Source of the DNA: Podarcis melisellensis | Taxonomy: Eukaryota | Strand: one strand, 5' to 3' | Length of the DNA: 42,376 nt | Assembly: GCA_964234715.1 (NCBI GenBank) | Contig: OZ174284.1 | Shown: positions 3,664 to 30,315 of the stretch, in pieces | Layout: each line of letters begins with the position of its first letter | How positions within the stretch are numbered: position 1 is the first letter of the stretch | The notes under the pieces: model-generated | What the model was told of the DNA's origin: nothing | Database searches by the model: none | Seen by the model: only the letters and a program-made list of their open reading frames with translations | Program-made: the position numbers and the translations under genes

Positions 3664-5820
3664 TATATGTAAAGACTTAGCAGTGGAGCTGGTGTTTGCT
3701 GAACAGAAACTTCCCTCAGGACGAGGGCAGTCAGCTATAGATAATAAAATTAAGAAAACCAAACAATTAAATGATGCAGTCCTTAGGTATCTCCATAGTT
3801 GCTTTTCTGAGGAAGAAAAAGGCAGTGGACACTCCAAAGACTGAACTTCCACATCACATCCACTTTGACCCTCAGAAAGAAGAGGCTTGAACATGCAAAG
3901 GAGAGCTATGTATGCTTGAGAGTGTTTGTAGGCAAAAATGAGCAACAAGGCATCCAGCTAGGCCAGCCAAGTTAAAGGGATGGCCACACTGGTTGGGAAT
4001 GATGGGAGCTGGAGTCCAGGACTGCACTCCTACTGCAGCATGTGAATGATAGTGGAATTGCCTTCACGACAGCTTTAACCCTGAAACGTGTTGCTTCAGG
4101 AAAAATTGACTAATGGATACATTGTGACCTGCTCAGTTTTTTTTTTCCTCCTTCACTGACAAACCAGGAATCAAAAAACAAATCTGGCAGAGTGACCAAA
4201 TGCAGGAGAGGTCCAAGCTTTCATCTTTACCAGCTGTATAGAAGACATTTAGATGATCTTCTTCCTCTGGTACTAAAACACAGTAAACAGCATTTACTGC
4301 AATTGCAGGATACACAGACCCCTAATGTGCCGTGGTGACATCTAGCATCAACAGCTGAGGTCAGTGGAGGAGCAATGGCTTTTCCTTGAAAAGAGTGGCC
4401 TCTGATTGTGCTCTATAAAGGAACAATACCCTTAAAATGTTCTACCATTCCAAAAATAGCAATGCTTTTATCCCAGAGTCGCTATCTAATATACACTGAA
4501 AGCTCACTGCTCCTTCTTGAATCAGGCAGACAATGCCCTATGTTCCCCAGTGAGATCATGCTTTCTCACATCCAGTAAGGGCCTGACCATTTTTCTTTCT
4601 TCACGCACTGTGCCCTTCTGATTATTATTTTTCTGGAAACTGATTGCCAGCCATTCTCTGAGTATGGATGAGTGAGGGCTGTTCCAGACTTTTGGGGAAA
4701 GTATCTGTACTTTCTGTTCACATGAATCCACCCACATACCATTTAAAAGCAGGAATTCCTGTTGGGTGGGGGATATGAATATGCTTGCATTTGACATTCT
4801 TTCAAGGAGAACAACAGCAAGAAAACCCTGCTATTACATCAGTGACACACACACACACCTGCCCCAAATCTCAATGATCCACTTTGTGACTTGGGCAATG
4901 ATGGCAATAAACAATGTTACAAAGAAGCAATCTCAGGTTTTTCCCCCCTTTGTGTTTTCACTTTACATTTAGTGTAAGGGAGAGAGTCCACGAGCCATTA
5001 CTTAAATTATTCAGAAACTACTGATATGAATTCTAAGTACAATTAAAATCCAGTCCCTTGCTTTTCATAGAGCAGCTGTTGCCACCCACCAAGGAGAGAG
5101 GGAGGATGAGGAAGGTGGGAAAGCACCGCCAGAGCCATGTGCATTGTCCAGAGTGCCTCACTGCAAGGACCGGAGGGCAAGGTGACACAGCAGAGTTTCC
5201 AAAGGGAAGGTGGCCGCAATGTTGGTAATTACGGTAATGGCAGCGGGACCACCTCCCATTCATGAAAAACTGTGGTTGAAATCTCACAAATGTGCAAATG
5301 TCAAAATGGCTTTGCTGGGAGATTATCTTCTCTTGCTTGTCTTTCCCAGAAATCATGTCCTCCATCATGGAGGGCACGTGTTGCGGTGAGATCACCATAA
5401 ACTGCCTCCCTGTGGTGGGGCAGGACTGTTTGGATGGCCACAACACCCCACTGGTTGCCCCTCGGTTGCTAGGGCAGAGATTGGGCTAATTGGGATGGCT
5501 ATTGGCTGCTGAAGGTCTATATGTTGCTGGAGAGTTTCACTTTCTTGTGACGTGCAGTGGATCACCTGCCCTCCCCTCTCTTTAGTTAGGTTTCTTCTTT
5601 GGACCTTGCTATGCCTGTCTAGGGGTCGTCTATTTTTGGAGCAGTGGCCCGGTAGGAATTTTGCCATTTGGCCGATTGGCTGGTGCCACTTGGTTTTGGC
5701 CATGTAGCAAATCATCACAACTTTGTAAGGTTGGTGGTTAGGCATTGGTTCAATGTTGTTCGGAGGGGACGCGGTTGGCTATGCCTGCCCCTCCATTGCT
5801 GCTGCTAGGGAATTCTGTTA

Positions 5821-5862
<42 letters not shown>

Positions 5863-7360
5863 TAATAATAATTATTGTTATTTATTATTTATACCCCGCC
5901 CATCTGGCTGGGCCTCCCCAGCCACTCTGGGCGGCTTCCATAAAAACCAAAAATACAGTAAAATACCATACGTTAAAAACTTCCCTGAACAGGGCTGCCT
6001 TAAGATGTCTTCTGAATGTCAGGTAGTTGTTTATCGCTTTGACATCTGCTGGAAGGGCATTCCACAGGGTGGGCGCCACTACCGAGAAGGCCCTCTGCCT
6101 GGTTCCCTGTAGCTTTGCTTCTCGCAATGAGGGAACCGCCAGAAGGCCCTCGGCGCTGGACCTCAGCGTCCGGGCAGAATGATGGGGGTGGAGACGCTCC
6201 TTCAGGTATACTGGACCGAGGCCGTTTAGGGCTTTAAAGGTCAACACCAACACTTTGAATTGTGCTCGGAAACATACTGGGAGCCAATGTAGATCTTTCA
6301 AGACCGGTGTTATATGGTCTCAGCGGCCGCTCCCAGTCACCAGTCTAGCTGCCGCATTCTGGATTAGTTGTAGTTTCCGAGGGTAGCCCCACGTAGAGTG
6401 CATTGCAGTAGTCCAAGCGGGAGATAACCAGAGCATGCACCACTCTGGCGAGACAGTCTGCAGGCAGATAAGGTCTCAGCCTACGTACCAGATGGAGCTG
6501 GTAAACAGCTGCCCTGGACACAGATTTGACCTGTGCCTCCATGGACAGCTGTGAGTCCAAAATAACTCCCAGGCTGCGCACCTGGTCCTTCAGGGGCACA
6601 GTTACCCCATTCAGGAGCAGGGAATCCTCCACACCTGCCCGCCTCCTGTCCCCCAGAAACAGTACTTCTGTCTTGTCAGGATTCAACCTCAATCTGTTAG
6701 CCGCCATCCATCCTCCAACCGCCTCCAGACACTCACACAGGACCTTCACTGCCCTCACTGGTTCTGATTTAAAAGAGAGGTAGAGCTGGGTATCATCTGC
6801 ATACTGATGAACACCCAGCCCAAACCTCCTGATGATCTCTCCCAGCGGCTGCATGTAAATGTTGAAAAGCATGGGGGAGAGGACAGAACCCTGAGGCACC
6901 CCACAAGTGAGAGCCCAGGGGTCTGAACACTCATCCCCCACCACCACTTTCTGAACACGGCCCAGGAGGAAGGAGCGGAACCACTGTAGGACAGTGCCCC
7001 CAGCTCCCAGCCCCTCAAGACGGTCCAGAAGGATGTTATGGTCGATGGTATCAAACGCCGCTGAGAGATCCAGCAGAACTAGGAAACAGCTCTCACTTTT
7101 GTCCCTAGCCCGCCGGAGATCATCAACCAGTGCGACCAAGGCAGTTTCAGTCCCATGATGAGGCCTGAATCCCGACTGGAAGGGATCCAAATGGTCCGCT
7201 TCTTCCAGGCGTGCCTGGAGTTGTTCGGCAACCGCTCGCTCTATCACCTTGCCCAAGAATGGAAGATTTGAGACTGGGCGATAGTTGGCCATTGTGGCCG
7301 CATCTAAAGATGGTTTTTTAAGAAGTGGTTTAATAACCGCCTCTTTCAGTGGGTCTGGGA
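5821..7360 (-). mobile_element. L2-clade LINE, 5'-truncated, with (TTA/TAA)n tail
   Basis: RT motifs NYRPVSNLPFLGKVIE, QSGFR, LLDLSAAFDTIDH, GVPQGSVLSP, YADDTQLY; L2-type C-terminus LHWLPV...KVLVLTFKALNG; simple-repeat tail at 5821-5890. Confidence 0.95.
5885..7360 (-). pseudogene. L2 ORF2 reverse transcriptase remnant (frameshift near 6380, in-frame TGA at 6320-6322)
   Basis: ORFs 6345-7403 and 5885-6301 are one disrupted frame: ...YVGLP / RKLQLIQNAAARLVTGSGR*DHITPVLKDLHWLP. The endonuclease domain is absent. Confidence 0.9.
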
Positions 7361-10300
7361 AGGAATCCAGGGGCTTGCCTTGCTTTTGTCTGCACCCTGT
7401 CAAAGGGCTAGGGCCACACCAGAGCCCCTGGGAACATGTGGGGTGAGCTGTGAGATCGAAGGAGTTCTCACTCCCCCAGGATGCTTTCCCTTACTGACAT
7501 ATTGTGGTGCCCAGTGTCAGTCCTGTTCCTGCCACTGTGCAGATTCAAGTAGTCTGGAACCAATGCCTAAGCAACCACTCACATGCTGTAATCAATAAAG
7601 CTGTGGCCTAAATTAATGCCAAGAACCTTAAAACTAAATTCTGTGTCTATTGTCTTTAGTGGGGGGTTGGGGGTCTTCACACACAACAATTTCTTTCTGT
7701 GCAAAGCCTGGACAGTTCCTTGCAAACAGCCCCTGCAGCTTCAATTCCTTCCAGGCTCAATTTGTTCCTTCCTTCCTTCCTTCCTTCCTCCCCTCCCCCT
7801 GCCTTGAACACCCTTTCCCATTCTCTGCCTTATCTCTGCTCCCAGGTTTGGGCTAGTTTGCAAGGAGGGATTCCCTTGATTAGATGCTGACTGGCGAAGG
7901 GACTGACCACTGCCCAGTCTACCAGGGCAGCATAACACTTGCCTCACTGGGCATCAGCAACCCATGCTACGCCCCGGCTTAGTAGTATTGCATTCTAAAT
8001 CTGTCCAAATTCTTGTTATCAAATTATATCTTAATGAAGTTTTTATATAAATTAAGAACCCATAAATAGATAGATACTAAACAGTCCCTGAACTAGAGCA
8101 CCTGTAAGTAATATAAATGTCACTGTTCGGTTGTTTTGTACTTTTGAACTACCCCTTACATACTTGTAGCAACTCCCAACTAGTTTGACTCTAAATTGCC
8201 TGGGATAGAGGCAGCCAATGGGAATATGCAGCCACATTTGCCACAGACAGTGCTTTATAGACTGCCAGAAAAGATACATGGTCATCTCTCGGCACATAGT
8301 AAGTGTTCTCCTTCATCACTGTCACCATGGTATTTTCAAGCCATGGACAAAACAATGTAAGAGGCAGAAACAACACCGTTCATTTTGAAGGCACCAGTTT
8401 TAAGTACTGCATTCCAAATCCAGTGCTTATAACATATGCAGGAAGGTTACAATGCACTCACAGATCCTCATAAAAGCAAAGGTTGCCCCCTGACATCAAT
8501 GACAATGCTAAGCTTTTCCTTGTTTCATGCTTCCTGGGTAAAAATTGCAAAGCAGATCACACATTTCCCTCCTAGAGCAATGGATAAGTTTCACACAAAT
8601 ATGATATGTTCCCATCTCTCTGCAAGGCCGATGCATGAGCCTCCATTTTGTATGTTGCGCAAGGAGTGCTTGTTGCCTACATTTTCTAAGCCACTGTTTT
8701 TGTGTACTCTATGAAGCAGCCCTGCAGAAATTCCCCCAAACACCGTATATATTCTCTAGTCAAGAACAACTCAGCCCTGAGAGCAGGATATTCACAGTAT
8801 AGGATGTCACCTACAACTGAGTTGAAATCTTAACCTCAGTGTAGTTTTGTATAAACCAAATAAATGGCATGGGAATTTTACCACTCCAACCGAGGACAAA
8901 GCATAGTCCTTGAATTGCAGCTTATGTAAAACTGAAAGCAGGGGGCATGCTGATAGAAAACGTTGAGTCTAAAATGCTGCCAATTTTTTTTAAAAAAAGA
9001 GCAGCTCAAGAAGCCCAGGGCTAGATTTGATTTCTACCAACAGGAAAAAACAACTATATTTTATTCTGGTTCATACTACTTAACTTTCCTTTTGGAGGAA
9101 GCAGGTGAGGTCCAAGGGAAAACCAACCCGGATTTCATTTTCATTTCATCTTTACATTTTGCCAGCATGTGCTGAATAGTTTCTAAGCTCTTGAGAGCAA
9201 AGGGAAAACATCACCACAGATCACTGATATATTTTTGCATGAATGATTTATCAACCCTGAAATTAAAACAACCTTTAATTCAAAGGAACACGTCAGGCAG
9301 CAGAATGGGCCGTGTGGTTCGTGTAAAGTTATATTTATTGTGAGAAGCCATAAATGAATTCAAAGCTTGGTGCCCTACTTATTTTCTGAGAGATATGGTA
9401 TGCAGGAGCCCAGAATGGTTATTATTCAGCAACTTACATTGGTAAGCTATGGGTATTGATTGCACTGTGTTCTGTATTGATCCTAACCATTACAGAGGGT
9501 TGCTTTAGATGACCCTCAGGGTCCCTACGATTCTACAATTTACTTTTGGTCTGAGCTGAAACTGAAAGTCTGAAAACAGTGGCCATTTGTTTCGCGTAGC
9601 TGTTAAATATGTGTGTTTTTATGATGGCACTGTTAGGATTGTCCTACTTGTGTGTAGGACCCTGGCAGAGACACATGCCCGACTGGCATGTTCTCTCCCT
9701 CCTGGTTGATCATTCAGGAGCTTCAAAAGCTTTCTCCAACCCAAACATCACAGCGACTGATACAAAGTGGCATTAGCACACTTAGGATCCTGCAGAGTGT
9801 TAGCAGTTTGCGTAACAGAACTCAGTAGCGCAACATTTTGGCTAATCTACTTTATTTACATATAATACACTCGGAGCATTCTGAATTAGCTCCTTCCTTT
9901 TTCTCATCAGACAGCAAAGAGAAAGGACAAAGGACAATAGTCCCACAGCACGGAGCAAGAATCCTAGGAGGCACCAGTCCAATCCTATCCATGCTTACTT
10001 GACATTAGGTCCAGCTGAGTTCAAGGCAGACTTGCGTCCATCTGCTTCAAATTGTAAGGCTCAGCCACTTAAAGTTACATAGCCTCAAATCATATATTCA
10101 GGGAGGGAGGGGTGCTGAAATGCTTGGGAAGTCGTTCAGAAAAGAAACCAACAAACTCCTGTAACTCATATGTTGGTCAGAGTTCGGGAGCAGAAATCAT
10201 GCAAGCAGTATTTTCTACCATTTTTCCCCCTCTTTAGTTTGAAGAAGCTGTGTAAATGACTACATTGCTTTCTGCACTTGACACTTGAATTCCGTTAAAA

Positions 10301-11700: not shown

Positions 11701-12049
11701 AAAGGTAAAGGGACCCCTGACCATTAGATCCAGTCGTAACCGACTCTGGGGTTGCGGCGCTCATCTCACTTTATTGGCCGAGGGAGCCGGTGTACAGCTT
11801 CCGGGTCATGTGGCCAGAATGACTAAGCCACTTCTGGCGAACCAGAGCAGTGTACGAAAACGCCATTTACCTTCTGCTGGAGCAGTACCTATTTACCTAC
11901 TTGCACTTGACGTGCTTTTGAACTGCTAGGTTGGCAAGAGCGGGGACCGAGCAATGGGAGCTCACCCCGTTGCGAGGATTCGAACCACCGACCTTCTGAT
12001 CGCAAGTCCTAGGCTCAGTGGTTTAGACCACAGTGCCATCCACGTCACT
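11701..12049 (-). mobile_element. Sauria SINE
   Basis: (ACCTTT) tail, tRNA-like head with B box (ggttcgaatcc on minus), TSD atataagaat at 11691-11700 and 12050-12059. Confidence 0.93.
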
Positions 12050-13916
12050 ATATAAGAATACTGTACACATAAAAAAAACCAAAACCAAAACCTGACCTAT
12101 GACTCAAGTGAGTTTTCTGCATGTGAGCGGAATCTGACCATTAATTAGCACAATGTCCTGTAAATTCCAATTTCAAGAGATAGTGAACATCCACTCATTT
12201 GATGATGTGAGCACAGTTCACTCTGTATCTTCTGCCTTATTTAGAATTGTTTGCTTTTGTTTGTATGTAAACAGAGCTTCAAGGTGCCAGAATCCATTTC
12301 GCTGTTCATCATATCAGTACGATACTAAGAGTGGGATGTACAGAGAAGAACTTCAGAAATCGAAAGTGGAGATGCCACCAAGACCTCCATGTTCAAGCTC
12401 AAATCAAGTATGAGATGAGCATTACAGCTCCCAAATCCCTCTCTTCAGATGCTGGAATTCTAGAACAGCACTGGGAAGCCTCCATTCCATGGGCCTTATG
12501 GGGCCCACTAGGCCTCCAAGTTTGGCACATGAGGCTGTTTTGGCAAATCCACAGCTCCCTTTGTGTGGCAGGTAAAGATGGGGCTTGAACCAAAGATGAG
12601 GCTTTCAGGTACCAACAACTAGGTGGCTGTCAGTAGAGTTCCTTTGCCAGCACAGTATGAAATTCCTTTGCCAGCACAGTATGATAGCAAAGGAAAATGC
12701 TCGCCTGTCAAACTTGATCCATGAGATCAGGCCCACTGGAGTGATCCAGTTCCCCACCATTGTGCTAAAAGATAACTAATGTTTGCCTAGTGATATTGTT
12801 GCTGCTGTTAATAGTCAAAAAAATTCAAGAATTATATCCATCTCTAACTTGACCACCTAATATATCCAGATATATTCGACTTATAAGAGAGCCCCCTTTT
12901 TATTTTATATTGTATATCAAAATGCTTTTAATAATGGGCACTTCCACCAGCTATGGAGGAAAGAAACAGAAGTTAATTTAAGATAATCCATCCCAGCTTT
13001 TAACTGCATGCTGGGGTGGAGAAATAAGCACAGGGGACAATGCTATGCAACTCAAAATATAAAGCTATTTGAGATTTGCTATTGTCTATCTAAAGCCACT
13101 CATTTATTTTACATTAAAATTTAAAATTGTAATTAAGCCAGTTCCTTCTTGGCCATTGCTGCCAAACCTGCAGGGTACATTTCTTATCTCACCTACAGAA
13201 TATGGAATTCGCTTTTTCAATATAATTAAGTCTTTGGAACTGGCTTTTGGAGTGCAGGCTGATGCCGTTTCACATGGGCTTGAAAAGATCTCCTCAAATT
13301 ATACATGACAGCCCAGTTGCATTCCCATCAAAATGTTCCAATCTTATGGATTAATTCAAAGAGAGGCACTGCTCAATCTTTCAACTGTTGGCTCCGGGCA
13401 GGTGTTTCTGTTCCTTCCAGCTGAAGCACAGATGAATGGAGTTTGACAGGGTTTCCCCTTCAGTGACATTCTAAGGAAAATGAGTTAGACTTGTCTTTTG
13501 GCTAAGGCAGAGGTGAGTGACAAACAACTGTCAGTCAACGGCTTCCCTCCAACTGCAACTCTATGGCACTTTCTTAGACAAGCCAGGTGATGAAGAAATA
13601 AGCTCTTCTTGGAGCATTATGATTTTTAAAATCTGAATTTTTAATCTTAATTCTTTTATAACTAGTTGGAAAAGTTTTCAGCACTATTGGTACCCAAGGA
13701 GGTTGTAATAATGGGAACTTCACAGGATCTTTCCCGAAGATATTTTTTTATATACTTTTTCAATGCTCATACTGGACATTGGGGGGGGGGCGGGAATCAG
13801 TTGCAGTTGCATTAGTGACATTTTCACAAGGCTATAGCATTATGATGAACTGGAGTTACTAGTAAAAGCTCTTGGCATTCCTATGAAGCTTGCCAGAGTT
13901 AGGCCTAGAAATGAGT

Positions 13917-15931: not shown

Positions 15932-16300
15932 TAAAAAGGTAAAGGACTCCTGACAGTTAAGTCCAGTCGCAGACAACTCTGGGGTTGCGGTGCTCATCTC
16001 GCTTTACAGGCTGAGGGACCCGGTGTTTGTCCACAGACAGTTTTTCCAGGTCATGTGGCAAGCATGACTAAGCCGCTTCTGGTGAAACCAGAGTACCACA
16101 CAGAAATGCTGTTTACCTTCCCGCCGGAGCGGTACCTATTTATCTACTTGCACTTTTTTGGCGTGCTTTCAAACTGCTAGGTTGACAGGAGCAGGGACTG
16201 AGCAACGGGAGCTCACCCCCTCATGTGGATTCAAACCGCCGACCTTCTGATCGGAAAGCCCAAGGCTCAGTGGTTTAGACCACAGTGCCACCCACGTCCC
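15932..16300 (-). mobile_element. Sauria SINE
   Basis: Homologous to 11701-12049; TSD tacgttcaac (15922-15931) / tacattcaac (16301-16310). Confidence 0.93.
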
Positions 16301-16833
16301 TACATTCAACACTTCTAACTAATTTTGTATTCAGAGCAGGGCCAGCTCCAGTTTTTAGGAGGTCCTTGGGCAAGATGCTCTCTATGCCCCTCCTCTGAGT
16401 GTCAGATTTCACTTACACTCTCCTTCTGGGCCCATTCTGCACAACTACTCAGGGGGGCAAGATAAGGCAAGTGGACAGGCCTGCTGCACCTTCTCACTCT
16501 GAGCTTGTCTGCTCCAAGAGCACAAGTGGATATGCAGCAACATCAAAGAGAAAGACGAGGAGCCTCCTCCACTCACATCACTATCTCTCTCCAGAGATAG
16601 ATGGTTCTGGAGATCAGTAGTGGTCCCAATGCAGTGGGAGAGCCCCGGCAAATGGCCAGCAATCCCAACCTCTGATACCAAACCTTCCTAGGTGGGTACC
16701 GAAATTAAGTTCACTGGAATAAGCAGTTAAAAACTGCTGAAATAGATAGAGATCTGGATAACCTGGTTTTCTAGGCAGGAAGATACAGTCAACCAACACA
16801 GCATTCCTGGCATCTCCAGAATAGGTAGACATT

Positions 16834-19344: not shown

Positions 19345-20115
19345 AAAACAAAAATATTCAACTTTAAATGATTATTTAAATGTATTGGGCGTTTATCCCT
19401 CCCAGTCCCCCACCGAGGATCTGGGGAACATCAGGGTTTTCCAGAGTGGTGGGGTGGGGATGGGCTGGCTCTGGAGAACCTATGTTCAAGCAGAGAGCCC
19501 GCCCCTGTTACGCCGCCGTCACAGGGGAGAGCAATGACAACCTCTTGGCGTACGGCCAAAGCCTCCCCTCAAAACAACCCCTTTAACGGGGAACCCTGGT
19601 ATCACCGCTGCAAAGAGAAGGGGGGCATCACCACTACACGCCCTCCCCCAATTTAGGGAAGATAGACTAAAGGATTCTGCCCAAGGCCTGATACCACCAA
19701 AGCTGTGACATTTTGCTACAGGGAAGGCAAACCTGCCAATGCAGGAGAATTCCTTTCCGGCCCTTCAACAGCAACCTTGACATAGCAGCACCCGCGTACC
19801 TGTGAAGAAAAGGTTAGCCTGCAAAAGAAGTCTTAACTGAGAGTGGGTAGGGTGGGAGAAACTCTGGAGTCAACTGACGATTCCCAGGTAAGATCCTCCC
19901 CCTATGGTGTGGGCAGGGTGGTCCCTTCCCCTACCTGTCCTGATCACCTTGGCAACGCCTCCCCAGGTGGGATTGGCTGAGGTAGGCAGAGACCTCCAGG
20001 TATCCCACCTGGGGAAGGCGAAGCCAAGCCTGTGCTAATGGTGCTGCATAGGGTCCAGGGGGCTGCATGCAACCACATAAAGGGCCATCCCCCATTTCAT
20101 GTGGGGAGCAGTCAT
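19345..20115 (-). mobile_element. Distant relative (copy C) of the ~800-bp LTR-like/YR-type element; boundaries approximate
   Basis: On minus it has the same ordered blocks as copy B: gctatg, aagggcc..aggaatt..attggc..tttgcct..tagcaaa..gtcaca..tcaggc, ccgttaaagg, ggtggggg..ccaat, ttttaataa. Confidence 0.65.
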
Positions 20116-20918
20116 TGCGTGTGGGGAAGATAGAACAGTGTTGGTTTCTTCACAGTGCTTCCATAAAGCTTGATGTTATACAGAACAGGGTTGGTATTGT
20201 TGCTTCTTCAAATTTAGACATTCAGAGTAAAGCCCCCCCACCTAAGCCTACATTGCAATGGCCCGCTTTTACGTTTACCTAACCAAATGCTCTGTTGCAA
20301 TATTTCTGGAAGTGACTCCAAAAATACAATCTTATCTTGCATTCTAGGCAAACAGCTGTGCTGTAAGTTTTAAAAAAGCACACACCTAAACTGAAGAGGG
20401 AATATCAGATTATTCCATCATCATCTTTTTGACATAAACAATGGATCCATCTGTAAAAGTTCCCTTCCGGCTGTATCCCCTTTAGTATTTTCTGCATGAT
20501 ATGATTAGCTGGCACAGGAGACCAAGGAGATACCTTATGCTCTTTCCCTCCTTTGAAGTAATATGGAAAGAAGGTTTAATCTAGGTTTAATTAACTACCA
20601 TGAACAATGGGTACATTTCGTTTCAACCTACTGTAACTAGCTTTGAAGAAAAGTCCCTTTTTTAAAGAGCACTTTTTATTTGCACTCCCTCAAATTTCCA
20701 CTAAAAAAAAATATGGCTATTTTTACCTGTCCTGTCTCGACCTTCCGTAGGAGCTCATTGGCACACCAGGTCACCTGAGGGCAATATACACAAGCAGGTA
20801 AGCTTGCTTGGCATGTTGTACACGGCTCTCCTCATTTGCTGCCACACAATATGCCAGTTGTGGTTTGTCCCCCACAGTAGCTCTGTGTGATGTGTCGCTT
20901 CCAGTTGTAAGAACACTA

Positions 20919-21386: not shown

Positions 21387-21756
21387 AAGGTAAAAAGGTA
21401 AAGGTACCCCTGCCCGTACGGGCCAGTCTTGACAGACTCTGGGGTTGTGCGCCCATCTCACTTAAGAGGCCAGGGGCCAGCGCTGTCCGGAGACACTTCC
21501 GGGTCACGTGGCCAGCGTGACATCGCTGCTCTGGCGAGCCAGAGCCGCACACGGAAACACCGTTTACCTTCCCGCTGGTAAGTGGTCCCTATTTATCTAC
21601 TTGCACCCAGAGGTGCTTTCGAACTGCTAGGTTGGCAGGCGCTGGGACCGAGCAGCGGGAGCGCACCCCGCCGCAGGGATTCGAACCACCGACCTTTTGA
21701 TCGGCAAGTCCTAGGCGCTGAGGCTTTAACCCACAGCGCCACCTGCGTCCCCCAGG
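21387..21756 (-). mobile_element. Sauria SINE, distinct young subfamily
   Basis: CpG-rich, different 3' region (ggtacccctgcccgtacgggccagtc); perfect 22-bp TSD tgaactgcatggctagtagaaa (21365-21386, 21757-21778). Confidence 0.95.
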
Positions 21757-23591: not shown

Positions 23592-24402
23592 AAAGCGTGT
23601 TCTCCTTCATGGAGAGCACGTGTTGCGGTGGGGGCCGCCAGGACACTCCAAAGTTGGGGGCGGGCTAACTGATCATTGGCCACTGATGCGATTGGGGCTT
23701 CCCTTGTTGTTGGGAAGAAATTAATGTTGCCATTTATTGATTGACAGCCAGAAATGCTAAAACTCCTTGCGCGAGGCTAGGGCTTCCTCTTTTCGCCCGT
23801 GCAGCGGATTGCCCGTCCCTCCCTCCCTAGAATAAGGTTGTTCGCTTTGACCTTGCTATGCCTGTCATGGGGTCGTCTGCCGTTGGGGCAAGGGCCTGGT
23901 AGGAATTTTGTCCATCTGGCTGATTGGCTGGGGCCATTTGGTTTTTGCCTACTGCATAGCAAATCGTCACAACTTGTAAGGTTCGCGGTCAGGCATTGGT
24001 TTATGGTTTGGTTGGTTGAGGGGCATGGATTGGCTGTGCCTGCCCTCTAATGCTGCTGCTGCAAGGGATTCCGTTAAAGGAATTGGGGGCTAACTATTGC
24101 TTGTCCACTCTGTCAAGGGGGCTCGGGCCATAGCAATGAGCTCCTGGTTGCATTTGGGGTGAGGGCAGGTTCCCTGCTCCGCGTAACCTCCACGTGTATT
24201 CCCCCATTTTGACTTTCGCATCATGCGGAATGTCAGTCTGTCCCCCATGGTGGGGGCAGATAGTCGCAACCAATGCCTAAGCAACCACTCACAAATTTGT
24301 ATTTTAATAAAGTTGTGGCCAAAATTATGCCAAAAACCTTAAACAAAAATTCTGTGTGATGTGTGAGTTATTGGGGTGGACCTGGGGACCTCGACACGCA
24401 AA
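23592..24402 (+). mobile_element. ~800-bp LTR-like / putative YR (DIRS/Ngaro-type) solo element, copy B (uninterrupted)
   Basis: Homologous end to end with copy A. Bounded by aaa|gcgtgt ... acacgc|aaa; 5' hairpin at 23595-23621; aataaa at 24306; no coding capacity; no TG...CA ends. Confidence 0.8.
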
Positions 24403-27400: not shown

Positions 27401-28761
27401 GTTGCACGCAGGAGAGTATCATTTAGAAGTTTATTCAGCGTTGGACAGAACAAAGAAAGACATGACTGCCTGCTTCGGTATGCTCAGGCACAGAGAGAGA
27501 GAAACAAAAGCAATAGAAAACATAAACATCCTGTGAACAGGAACTACGCAGACTCTGTGACTCACAAAGCCTGCTCCCTTTTAAGGTGGAACGGAAATAT
27601 CCTAACAATAGTGTGGCTTAAAAATATACATCTCAAGAGGTGTGTCTTCAGCATATAATGAAAACTATATAATGAAGGTTTCCATCTTATCAAAGCATGA
27701 GCCATGCCTTTGCCCATGCAAACAATGTTATATTATTTTCAAGTATTTTCTTAGTTGTGCATCACAATTATGTGGTCACTGACCATAATGAGTGACTGGG
27801 CATTTCTAAACCTCATTTCTATGCTGTACATGCTAAGAATGGAATAGACATGTTGCAATCCTTATTGCATTCGAACAGTTTAAAAGAAATCCTGAAAATG
27901 ACATGAAATTTTAAATTTTTCCCACCTACTAAGATATTAAGGGAAAGACAGCTAATGTATTACTGAAACATAATGAAGAAAATCAAGCCATCACTGCTCA
28001 TTTAATCTGAGTGATCAATAGACTTGCACCTTGACTTCAGTCTAATCAGTCCTCCTTGATTCCAGTTATTTTAAAACACTATTTACAAAAATAGCACCAT
28101 AATTGAGTCTAATCATGGTTTTTAAGAATCTAGGCTTAGGATGATGTTCCCAAAGCTCTTTAGGTTTAGTCTCGTTTGCCTTTTTTATTTCCTTCCCAAA
28201 CTTCTAGAGTTAGCATGGGGTAACTGGAAAACTCATCTGATTCTTTTCACAGTATTTGTTTCTACACAAGGCAATAGACTGACTATTTAGCACTGCAGAT
28301 AAGATGATCCCAGAGAACTGAAAGTGTAGACAGGGCAATCTCAGAGAAGTGGACAAAGTGAAAAGGCAAGTACCAGGCAATTGAGAAATGGCAGTTTAAG
28401 CATCAGCAGACTAGGGAGATGAGACCTGAAAAGGCCTTTGCAATAGGTATGGAACATCACAAGCAAATTCCAGAAAGTGGTATGAAAGGTCGGAAATGTG
28501 ATGGGAGAAGCATGTTTCCTGCTTCTGTGCTGTTGCCAAAGAAAAATCCAAGGGTCATAGCCAGTGTTGGTGCTACTCAAAATAAACCCATTGAAATTAA
28601 TGGACATGACTAACTCAGGTCCACTAATTACAATGAGTGTACTTTGAGTTGTTGACAACAACCCCAAATTCATCAGAAGAAGTTATGGTCATATATATAT
28701 ATATATATATATATGCAGGTTTTGGTGTCCTCGGGTGTCTTCCCGTGTAAAAGTTGGGGTG

Positions 28762-28807
28762 TCTAGGCGACGTTTCGACGAGGTCTCACTCGTCATCTTC
28801 AGGCTGG
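28762..28807 (-). ncRNA. Minimal type I hammerhead ribozyme (GUC cleavage triplet)
   Basis: ccagc-CTGAAGA-t-GACGAG-tgagac-CTCGTC-GAAA-CG-TC-gcctag: full catalytic core, 6-bp stem II, palindromic ACGT stem III; stem I is short. Confidence 0.85.
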
Positions 28808-29837
28808 TGCTTTCGGCTTCTTGTTACTGGAACAGAGCAGGATCTCAGTGTTTGAGTTCCTATAAATACTGTTGAGGGGGTGTGGTGTATAGCCTCCAAT
28901 GTTCTGGGCAGAGAGGAAGTTCTCAGGCTAGTGTGCCTTTTCTTCTTTTGTTCCTTAATTACTTGAGGGATATCTTGAGTGATTTCTTGAGTGATATCCT
29001 GAGTACCACTTAGGTGGGTCATTAGGTGTGGATTAGTTGCTAAAGTCTTTGTGTCTTGACCTCTTGAACTTTGTGAAGAGTTTTTCTGAGAAGATGGCTG
29101 TACTGCACTTAGTTGTGCTCTGGCTTGGCTTCGTGTATAGGGGCGAGTTGTGGTTTTGTGGCCTGTGTCAGCCAGATCTGTGTAGGGATTGCAGGGGGGT
29201 GCAGCATCCGGAGGTGCCACCATGGTTTGGCTACTGGATGGTGTCTGTAATTTATCTGTGGAGAGGGTCTGGGTTTGGGTCTGGTGTGGTTGATTGGTGA
29301 TGGCGTTCTGTGTGCCTCTGGATCTGGTGTCAGTTTTTGTGGGGAGGGCTAATTTCCAGATGTCTGGCAAGCGGGATGTGTCGTCACGCTTGTTCATGTT
29401 GTGAGGGTGTTTCTCTATCTCGATGGCTTCCATGATTATTCTCTTGTGGTGATGTTCCATGTTAAAGAGCAATTTGGAATCTGCAAAATTAATTTCGTGT
29501 CCTGTTTCTTTCATGTGTTGGAAAAGAGAGGAAGTTTTTTCTTCTTTTTTGACGGCATTCTTGTGTTCTGCGATACGTGCATTTATTCGTCTGTTTGTTT
29601 GTCCAATGTACGTGGCTGGGCAGACTTTGCAGGGTATTTCATAGACCCCTTGGTTTTCCAACTGGATTTTATCCTTGGGGTTTCTGAGGATATTGGCTAT
29701 TTTTTGGTTGGTGCAAAAGGCTGTTTTGATATTGTGTTTATGGAGGATTTTGCTAATTTTATCTGTAGTGCCCTTGATATAAGGAAGGAGGGCCATGCCA
29801 TTGTTTTCTTCTGTGTCTTGGTTTTTGGGGGGTGTTT
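28786..29837 (-). CDS. Penelope-like polyprotein C-terminal part: RT thumb end, GIY-YIG endonuclease and long T/Q/S-rich tail (open frame, N-terminally truncated)
   Basis: LPYIKGTTDKISKILHKHNIK; GVYEIPCKVCPATYIGQT...RIAEH...HMKETGH...EAIEI...N..D...IW. The first ~9 codons of the listed ORF come from the inverted arm. Confidence 0.9.
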
Positions 29838-30170
29838 CTATACACGAAGCCAAGCCAGAGCACAACTAAGTGCAGTACAGCCATCTTCTCAGAAAAACTC
29901 TTCACAAAGTTCAAGAGGTCAAGACACAAAGACTTTAGCAACTAATCCACACCTAATGACCCACCTAAGTGGTACTCAGGATACCACTCAAGAAATCACT
30001 CAAGATATCCCTCAAGTAATTAAGGAACAAAAGAAGAAAAGGCACACTAGCCTGAGAACTTCCTCTCTGCCCAGAACATTGGAGGCTATACACCACACCC
30101 CCTCAACAGTATTTATAGGAACTCAAACACTGAGATCCTGCTCTGTTCCAGTAACAAGAAGCCGAAAGCA

Positions 30171-30216
30171 CCAGCCTGAAGATGACGAGTGAGACCTCGT
30201 CGAAACGTTGCCTAGA
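30171..30216 (+). ncRNA. Minimal type I hammerhead ribozyme, second copy (GUU triplet)
   Basis: ccagcCTGAAGAtGACGAGtgagacCTCGTCGAAACGTTgcctag; one C>T change at the cleavage-site base (30209). Confidence 0.8.
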
Positions 30217-30260
30217 CACCCCAACTTTTACACGGGAAGACACCCGAGGACACCAAAACC

Positions 30261-30315
<55 letters not shown>

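Follow-up and report, generated by a model that had tools for sequence, protein, structure and literature searches.

As far as the accessible text of PMC9210276 goes, Ngaro retrotransposons, members of the DIRS order, are organized around split direct repeats that follow one another in the order A1-ORFs-B1-A2-B2, and solo AB units are already known for these elements (accessible part of PMC8547959). Another kind of system has to be kept in mind here, the ENE, which the available portions of PMC7583470 and PMC13541005 present as a U-rich internal loop beside G-C pairs, located near the 3′ end; according to the accessible text of PMC12501189, an ENE promotes the retrotransposition of Evade.

The window analyzed here is a stretch of 42,376 nucleotides from Podarcis melisellensis (contig OZ174284.1, assembly GCA_964234715.1). 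An initial annotation had singled out three diverged copies of a short non-coding motif, described as a conserved, covarying RNA structure that may be common to unrelated retroelements. The three quoted sequences are indeed present in the window at the positions claimed, and the quoted motif is one arm of a larger module of 90-125 nt. Its carriers are ordinary Ngaro remnants: copies A, B, and C of the window are solo A-X-B end units of Ngaro (tyrosine-recombinase) retrotransposon subfamilies, X being a spacer between the two repeats. The features are as follows:

5350..7681, + strand: copy A, an older solo unit of a related Ngaro subfamily, interrupted by a LINE insertion, with AATAAA at 7594-7599.
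5600..5721, + strand: module in copy A, decayed, from the covariance model.
5823..7359, − strand: LINE fragment with a reverse-transcriptase frame (RVT_1, E 3e-38), inserted in copy A, which we take to be L2.
19384..20116, − strand: copy C, solo A-X-B end unit of a Ngaro subfamily, 76-77% identical to the A2-X-B2 ends of ORF-bearing elements of the C clade.
19702..19794, − strand: module in copy C, decayed three-way form, from the covariance model.
23592..24401, + strand: copy B, a complete solo A-X-B unit of 810 bp.
23592..23811, + strand: A repeat of copy B; A1 is unit 1-220 in the full-length locus L083.
23812..23984, + strand: spacer X of copy B, single per full element, between A2 and B2.
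23847..23973, + strand: module in copy B, four-way form, from the covariance model and predicted fold.
23985..24401, + strand: B repeat of copy B, terminating in ...GACACGCAA.

These three module copies are exactly those returned within the window by the covariance model, which was built from 26 sequences, window copy B included and copies A and C excluded. Copy C is truncated at its 3′ end just ahead of the poly(A) signal, the family unit being about 880 bp, and copy B has neither a target-site duplication nor TG..CA ends. In copy A, the decay noted earlier in the 3′ strand is confirmed by a three-way alignment, in which 4 nt are lost from the 3′ strand of helix P2. All three belong to dispersed high-copy families, with 3,630 candidates for B, 1,847 for C, and 3,367 for A at first look (40 of each were scored); the families end in CACGCAA, and their flanks, inspected by eye for 30 B and 30 C copies, show neither duplication nor TG..CA. 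The surroundings of B and C, said at first to barely align, are instead homologous: both have TGCTAYG..RTAGCA, GTCACAAC, and a long-range helix; the C family also has AATAAAGTTGTGG and the CACGCAA end, so that the homology extends beyond the quoted core. Solo LTRs of ERV or Gypsy type were discarded as candidates, as TG..CA ends and duplications are missing and the full elements encode a YR. Full elements also begin with the A repeat, which is likely their promoter. Elsewhere in the window, we observed a Penelope-like fragment (28691-30287), the GIY-YIG frame of which (E 7e-4, below the cut-off) is flanked by 450-bp inverted repeats 99.6% identical to each other, and three copies (11701-12053, 15932-16305, and 21391-21751) of a 350-bp SINE-like repeat, presumably the Sauria SINE.

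The end-to-start junction of the B unit was found at two loci, L083 and L084, where a partial unit is followed by YR-like and SGNH-like frames, then by B1 and A2, with a complete B2 in addition at L084; this split-direct-repeat layout leads to the Ngaro assignment (accessible text of PMC9210276). Elements were sampled independently of the motif through a YR-like peptide search of the genome, from which 60 loci, picked for score diversity, were fetched out of 150 listed matches. Most of them have four long frames, corresponding to gag zinc finger, RT, integrase-family, and GDSL models; RVT_1 is above its curated cut-off in the three elements concerned (3/3), whereas the Phage_integrase/SAM, zf-CCCH, and GDSL matches are below theirs (best E ~3e-5), and no methyltransferase family was reported in the profile search of the element frames. 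B1 equals B2 in 34 of the 60 loci, and A1 also equals A2 in 31. The full elements are laid out as A1-gag/RT/YR/SGNH-B1-A2-X-B2, with A of about 215 bp and B of about 430 bp. A second clade, that of copy C, yielded 24 junctions (1 in the control), its RT and YR being, respectively, 54% and 49% identical in protein to those of the B clade, while a search of the genome for the end-to-start junction of family A found none. The idea of unrelated host elements is not supported within this genome: B and C link to ORF-bearing Ngaro elements, and A and B have about 73% identity across some 580 aligned bp.

Several observations were made along the way on the organization of these elements. At the B1|A2 junction, CACGC-AAA-GCGTG, two short inverted arms flank a spacer of A (e.g., L205 near 7044; 24393-24401 and 23592-23600 in the window), which makes it the likely recombinase crossover site; in the B clade, AA is kept at both integrated ends. 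Among the 60 YR-selected elements, 23 end exactly at the end of B1, without A2-X-B2, many of them with intact frames; a split of the element at the B1|A2 junction would be expected to leave two such halves, these elements on one side and the solo A-X-B units on the other. C-clade elements retain A1 and B1-A2-X-B2 and lose a variable part of the 5′ internal region, some of them all of it, a pattern that looks like reverse transcription started at the 3′ end and halted early.

The module fills the spacer X, a unique sequence of 154-176 nt (about 190 nt in the C clade). In all 34 YR-selected elements with B1 = B2, it is found in X, as a single copy and never at the 5′ end, and it ends 338-404 nt ahead of the AATAAA of B2; in the C clade, it is likewise single and in X in 16 of the 20 junction loci fetched. 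A pattern made of its outer anchors has 5,418 exact matches in the genome and 0 in the control. As B1 is identical to B2, X is the only sequence that sets an RNA ending in B2 apart from an RNA ending in B1. The module would be missing from transcripts ending in B1 and confined to the read-through RNA ending in B2, presumably the template for reverse transcription; going by the layout, it is this B2-ended RNA that would be required to rebuild the element.

Taken alone, the short stretches quoted initially as structures fold no better than shuffled sequences (z of −0.28, +0.34, and −0.67), and the picture changes with the whole module across intact elements. Averaged across 31 elements, identity reaches 90% in the module, against 78% in B, 73% in the RT DNA, and 66% in A, so that the module surpasses the other parts of the element in conservation. 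RNAalifold, run on 30 modules (the 34 elements minus 2 duplicates and 2 members of another clade), predicts a four-way junction made of P1, a small hairpin, a bulged-G hairpin (P4), and P2, which bears a U-rich loop and P3; family C retains a three-way form. Over the 32 predicted pairs, 959/959 cells are paired, a figure to be read as referring to pairs chosen by RNAalifold itself, and 3 pairs changed on both sides; in the test that gives these counts, related sequences can outscore shuffles without any structure. On an RT tree of 29 tips (L227 excluded), all 35 change events in these 32 pairs preserve pairing; for comparison, dead C copies evolving at the neutral rate give 39 events that keep and 37 that break pairing (24 of 29 copies), the same comparison in family B having just 3 of 29 usable copies. 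Six neighboring added positions alternate between pairs and pyrimidine mismatches, with 14 break events. In 26 hand-picked diverse copies, 90.5% of the cells are paired and 9 of 19 pairs changed on both sides, a score reached by 0 of 500 shuffles; no single pair reaches E < 0.05 in a tree-aware test (best 0.06 and 1.9 under two nulls). The change in the outer helix on which the proposed covariation was first based (AAGG/CCTT versus TAGG/CCTA) is valid across families, which have U-A, A-U, or C-G at this pair, i.e., three Watson-Crick states: we counted 114 U-A, 27 A-U, 8 C-G, and 17 other combinations in 166 copies parsed from 188 unique matches, some of which are mis-anchored by the regular expression. 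As a side observation, the highest covariation score is that of columns 69 and 90, where A-U and U-A are swapped in 27 of 29 elements.

The strand of the fold is indicated by its wobble pairs, as G-U accounts for 95 of the 959 paired cells on the sense strand and A-C for none, which points to the sense strand. Over the whole module, four intact copies folded both ways have z between −2.1 and −3.7 in sense and between −0.5 and −2.3 in antisense orientation; the window copies, for their part, have z of −0.04 (A), +0.20 (C), and −1.76 (B), an intact relative of C reaching −3.65. One could argue that the pattern stems from common descent and nothing more, or that it is an element of the DNA, such as a CCAAT box in reverse orientation or a structure formed by the minus-strand cDNA. 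Indeed, ATTGG occurs in 141 of the 166 parsed copies, all carriers in this genome are homologous, and the tree-aware test singles out no pair. We nevertheless hold this explanation to be very improbable: G-U pairs are found only on the sense strand, the sense z is below the antisense z in each of the four copies, and conservation exceeds that of coding DNA. Moreover, the apical hairpin with ATTGG, presented initially as kept, is common and not invariant, most of the 30 elements selected by protein having GATTAG as apical loop and ATTGG being missing from the loop of several families. The module is, on the strength of these alignments and predicted folds, a real one, under structure-preserving selection and predicted to fold in the sense strand.

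What is fixed in the module is the core GG-AA-UUU / UUU-(C)G-CC, the apical arm varying in length and sequence. The top two pairs of P2 are G-C in 30/30 elements, and in 26 and 24, respectively, of the 26 hand-picked copies; AA separates them from the U tract. A U-rich internal loop between two helices is predicted in 34/34 elements. On its 5′ side, the U runs are 3-5 long (2 for family C, where a C interrupts them); on its 3′ side, most measure 3-6. Of the 29 elements placed on the tree, 18 have three U followed by A, and family C has UUCU / UUU. In copy B, the predicted P2 associates 23897-23903 with 23948-23954, the U-rich loop corresponds to 23904-23911 / 23942-23947, P3 stands above it, and P1 and the side hairpins below. 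In copy C, the predicted parts are P1, the bulged-G hairpin P4, P2 (19758-19752 with 19727-19721), a loop AAUUCU / UUUG, and P3 (CCUGC-AUUG-GCAGG). The B clade has a second, 2x2 pyrimidine loop above the main one, which family C does not have; we noticed that this U/U loop in P3 shifts between two positions across subfamilies (columns 68-71 and 90-93).

As G-C pairs adjacent to a U-rich loop are the mark of an ENE, and as an ENE aids Evade, we favor a reading in which the module would be an ENE-like clamp, its U-rich loop gripping the poly(A) tail and protecting the full-length RNA from decay. This reading is put forward tentatively, and we would stop just short of calling it probable. Several points speak against it: the U tracts are short in some lineages, the near-invariant AA of the 5′ side could pair with two U of the 3′ side and shrink the loop, and the ENE features reviewed in the accessible text of PMC7583470 and PMC13541005 include neither a junction nor a bulged-G hairpin, both of which are conserved here. 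The outcome of the tree-aware test also counts against it, as do the RNA reads, in which no pile-up of ends marks the B2 poly(A) site, and the outside contigs described below, three of four of which have no AATAAA close downstream. The same loop could alternatively serve as a nuclear-export element, or bind some other host protein, on behalf of the unspliced RNA. The constitutive transport element is the model for such a role, with which the conserved internal loop and bulge, the 3′ non-coding position, and the presence of the module in a second type of repeat (see below) would agree; we find this improbable, as no Rfam family is matched and U-rich sequence on both strands of the loop is better explained by the binding of an A tract.

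Other candidates were discarded. Hairpin and hammerhead ribozymes have well-known core sequences, which are not kept across families here; the G after the U tract that an Sm site calls for is not conserved; an A tract encoded downstream, as a third strand, shows no covariation with the loop and is missing in family C. A scan of the window with Rfam gave no match at the gathering score, and only sub-threshold chance matches were obtained for an intact element end and for the outside contigs described below; in viral contigs, the pattern has 2 matches, neither of which folds as the module.

Setting the module in its transcript brings two long-range helices into play. In the first one (PB), the start of B pairs with a stretch located before AATAAA; this helix, some 250-350 nt in span, is predicted in 34/34 elements and was retrieved for 16 of 20 family representatives, with covariation from one family to another. 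In the second one (PA), the end of X can pair with AAGUUGUGGC, covering the last part of the hexamer and the bases that follow. In copy B, PB corresponds to 23991-24001 with 24268-24278, AATAAA is at 24306-24311, and 24310-24319 is able to pair with the end of X (23966-23975). According to the predicted fold, the long-range pairing would put away some 250-350 nt of B, such that the 3′ end would adjoin the module; some three to five U-A-U triples, together with A-minor contacts, could thereby join the tail to the U-rich loop, and the RNA so clamped would persist long enough to be copied.

The pairing of X with the hexamer region suggests another role, in which X would influence whether the 3′ end is formed at the poly(A) signal of B1 or at the identical one of B2. 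At B1, it is the end of the SGNH frame that is predicted to pair upstream of the hexamer, unlike the end of X at B2; PA is predicted in 25 of 34 elements, the 8 nt past the hexamer are predicted to be 31% open in B1 versus 2% in B2, and reads run through the signal in one solo unit. The strands of PA are, however, invariant, so that nothing covaries; at the hexamer itself, the two repeats are nearly alike (0.51 versus 0.45 open, B1 being the more open in 23/34), and the last 10 nt of X would be accounted for, not its U-rich arm. All in all, we give this role little credence. We noted besides that, in the 34 full elements, the bases immediately upstream of B1, roughly where the SGNH frame ends, show complementarity to those that precede AATAAA; this predicted pairing, with its apparent compensatory changes, would give B1 a fold unlike that of B2. 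As to transcripts, four raw-read RNA runs (59-240 reads each), which may come from a related species and the strandedness of which is unconfirmed, show no pile-up of read starts or ends. In one run, about 30 reads span a solo unit from end to end, with its module and AATAAA, and continue into one and the same flank; they look like the product of one host transcript.

The initial annotation proposed that a similar ATTGG-containing motif occurs in the CR1 3′ UTRs of some reptiles, which we treat as an assumption. In this genome, the CR1-type core pattern has 2 matches, both Ngaro-like, and the module was not found downstream of CR1 ORF2. The same core pattern is found in four contigs of a metagenome collection, which have a repeat of about 1 kb in common. 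They present the same P1, bulged-G hairpin, and P2, with a longer U-rich loop, in decaying tandem copies (the second copy has U7/U5-6 tracts), and, across about 80 nt, their module has 73-76% identity with L262, an old lizard copy. In the available contig DNA, tblastn gave no match to Ngaro RT, YR, or SGNH; the frame beside the module matches no family, and there is no AATAAA close downstream in 3 of the 4 contigs. We infer that these contigs are bird-like. One of them (L257) has an ORF2 end, which we take to be CR1-like, about 800 bp upstream of the module, and it appears to be a separate insertion. At the sequence level, the four contigs would support the portability of the module, as a homologous module exists there without matches to Ngaro proteins; they do not show the CR1 host that had been put forward.

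The longer U tracts of these contigs would suit a host-facing function better than a role tied to a protein of a single element. A role of the latter kind is easily conceived: X could be the mark that distinguishes full-length from B1-terminated RNA, a Gag zinc finger or the RT binding the junction for packaging or for the start of cDNA synthesis, much as the epsilon element of hepadnaviruses is an RNA element for packaging and cDNA start. The exclusivity of X to B2-ended RNA goes in this direction, as do the conserved junction topology and bulged G and the retention of A2-X-B2 in internally deleted C-clade copies; in addition, the primer of DIRS-1 reverse transcription is given as unknown in the accessible text of PMC7192593. 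We remain rather doubtful of this role, the foremost of the alternatives to the clamp, given a homologous module in DNA without detectable Ngaro proteins and a core kept between clades whose Gag proteins are about 37-45% identical over their aligned part.

Returning to the clamp, a broader version can be imagined, in which the module would belong to a new branched class of poly(A)-clamping elements that spread among vertebrate retroelements of separate origin (Ngaro, plus CR1-type repeats or others), marking and protecting only the replication-competent RNA and perhaps also holding the tail to start reverse transcription; we regard this version as unlikely. We found no description of the module in Rfam or in the full-text literature searched, and the supplements of the primary ENE survey may bear on its novelty. 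A highly conserved, single-copy structured spacer in young elements with intact frames makes a compact target for experiments, and it bears on how DIRS-order elements distinguish genomic RNA from mRNA, protect it, and prime its reverse transcription. If the module is an ENE, the protection of poly(A) by triple helices would extend to vertebrate tyrosine-recombinase retrotransposons, on a new scaffold, and thousands of solo copies could alter the stability of the host transcripts containing them.

Compared with Ngaro as described, our elements have the same split direct repeats, the same gag-like, RT, YR, and SGNH frames, and the same scattered isolated end units; they differ in having a unique X between A2 and B2, and the accessible text of PMC9210276 and PMC8547959 mentions neither X nor an RNA structure. 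The blunt triple helix of MALAT1 and MEN-beta has a likeness in the C-interrupted U-rich loop of family C, the module differing in having neither a tRNA-like element nor an Rfam match. Among the ENEs and double ENEs of transposons (Evade/Copia93 and rice TWIFB1; accessible text of PMC12501189, PMC7583470, and PMC13541005), we find the same location in the 3′ region of a retrotransposon, a counterpart to the second small U/U loop of the B clade, and an interrupted lower stem; the hosts reported in the available part of PMC7583470 are plants, fungi, slime mould, and stickleback retroviruses, and the primary survey may list more. With the single-domain ENE of KSHV PAN (accessible text of PMC7583470 and PMC13541005), the module shares the succession of stem, U-rich loop, and stem, G-C pairs right beside the loop, a 3′ strand with a bulge, and a position upstream of the poly(A) signal; it differs from it by U tracts of 3-5 (UUCU in family C) instead of five triples, by the AA of its 5′ side, and by its insertion in a three- or four-way junction located 338-404 nt from a signal that a helix is predicted to bring close.
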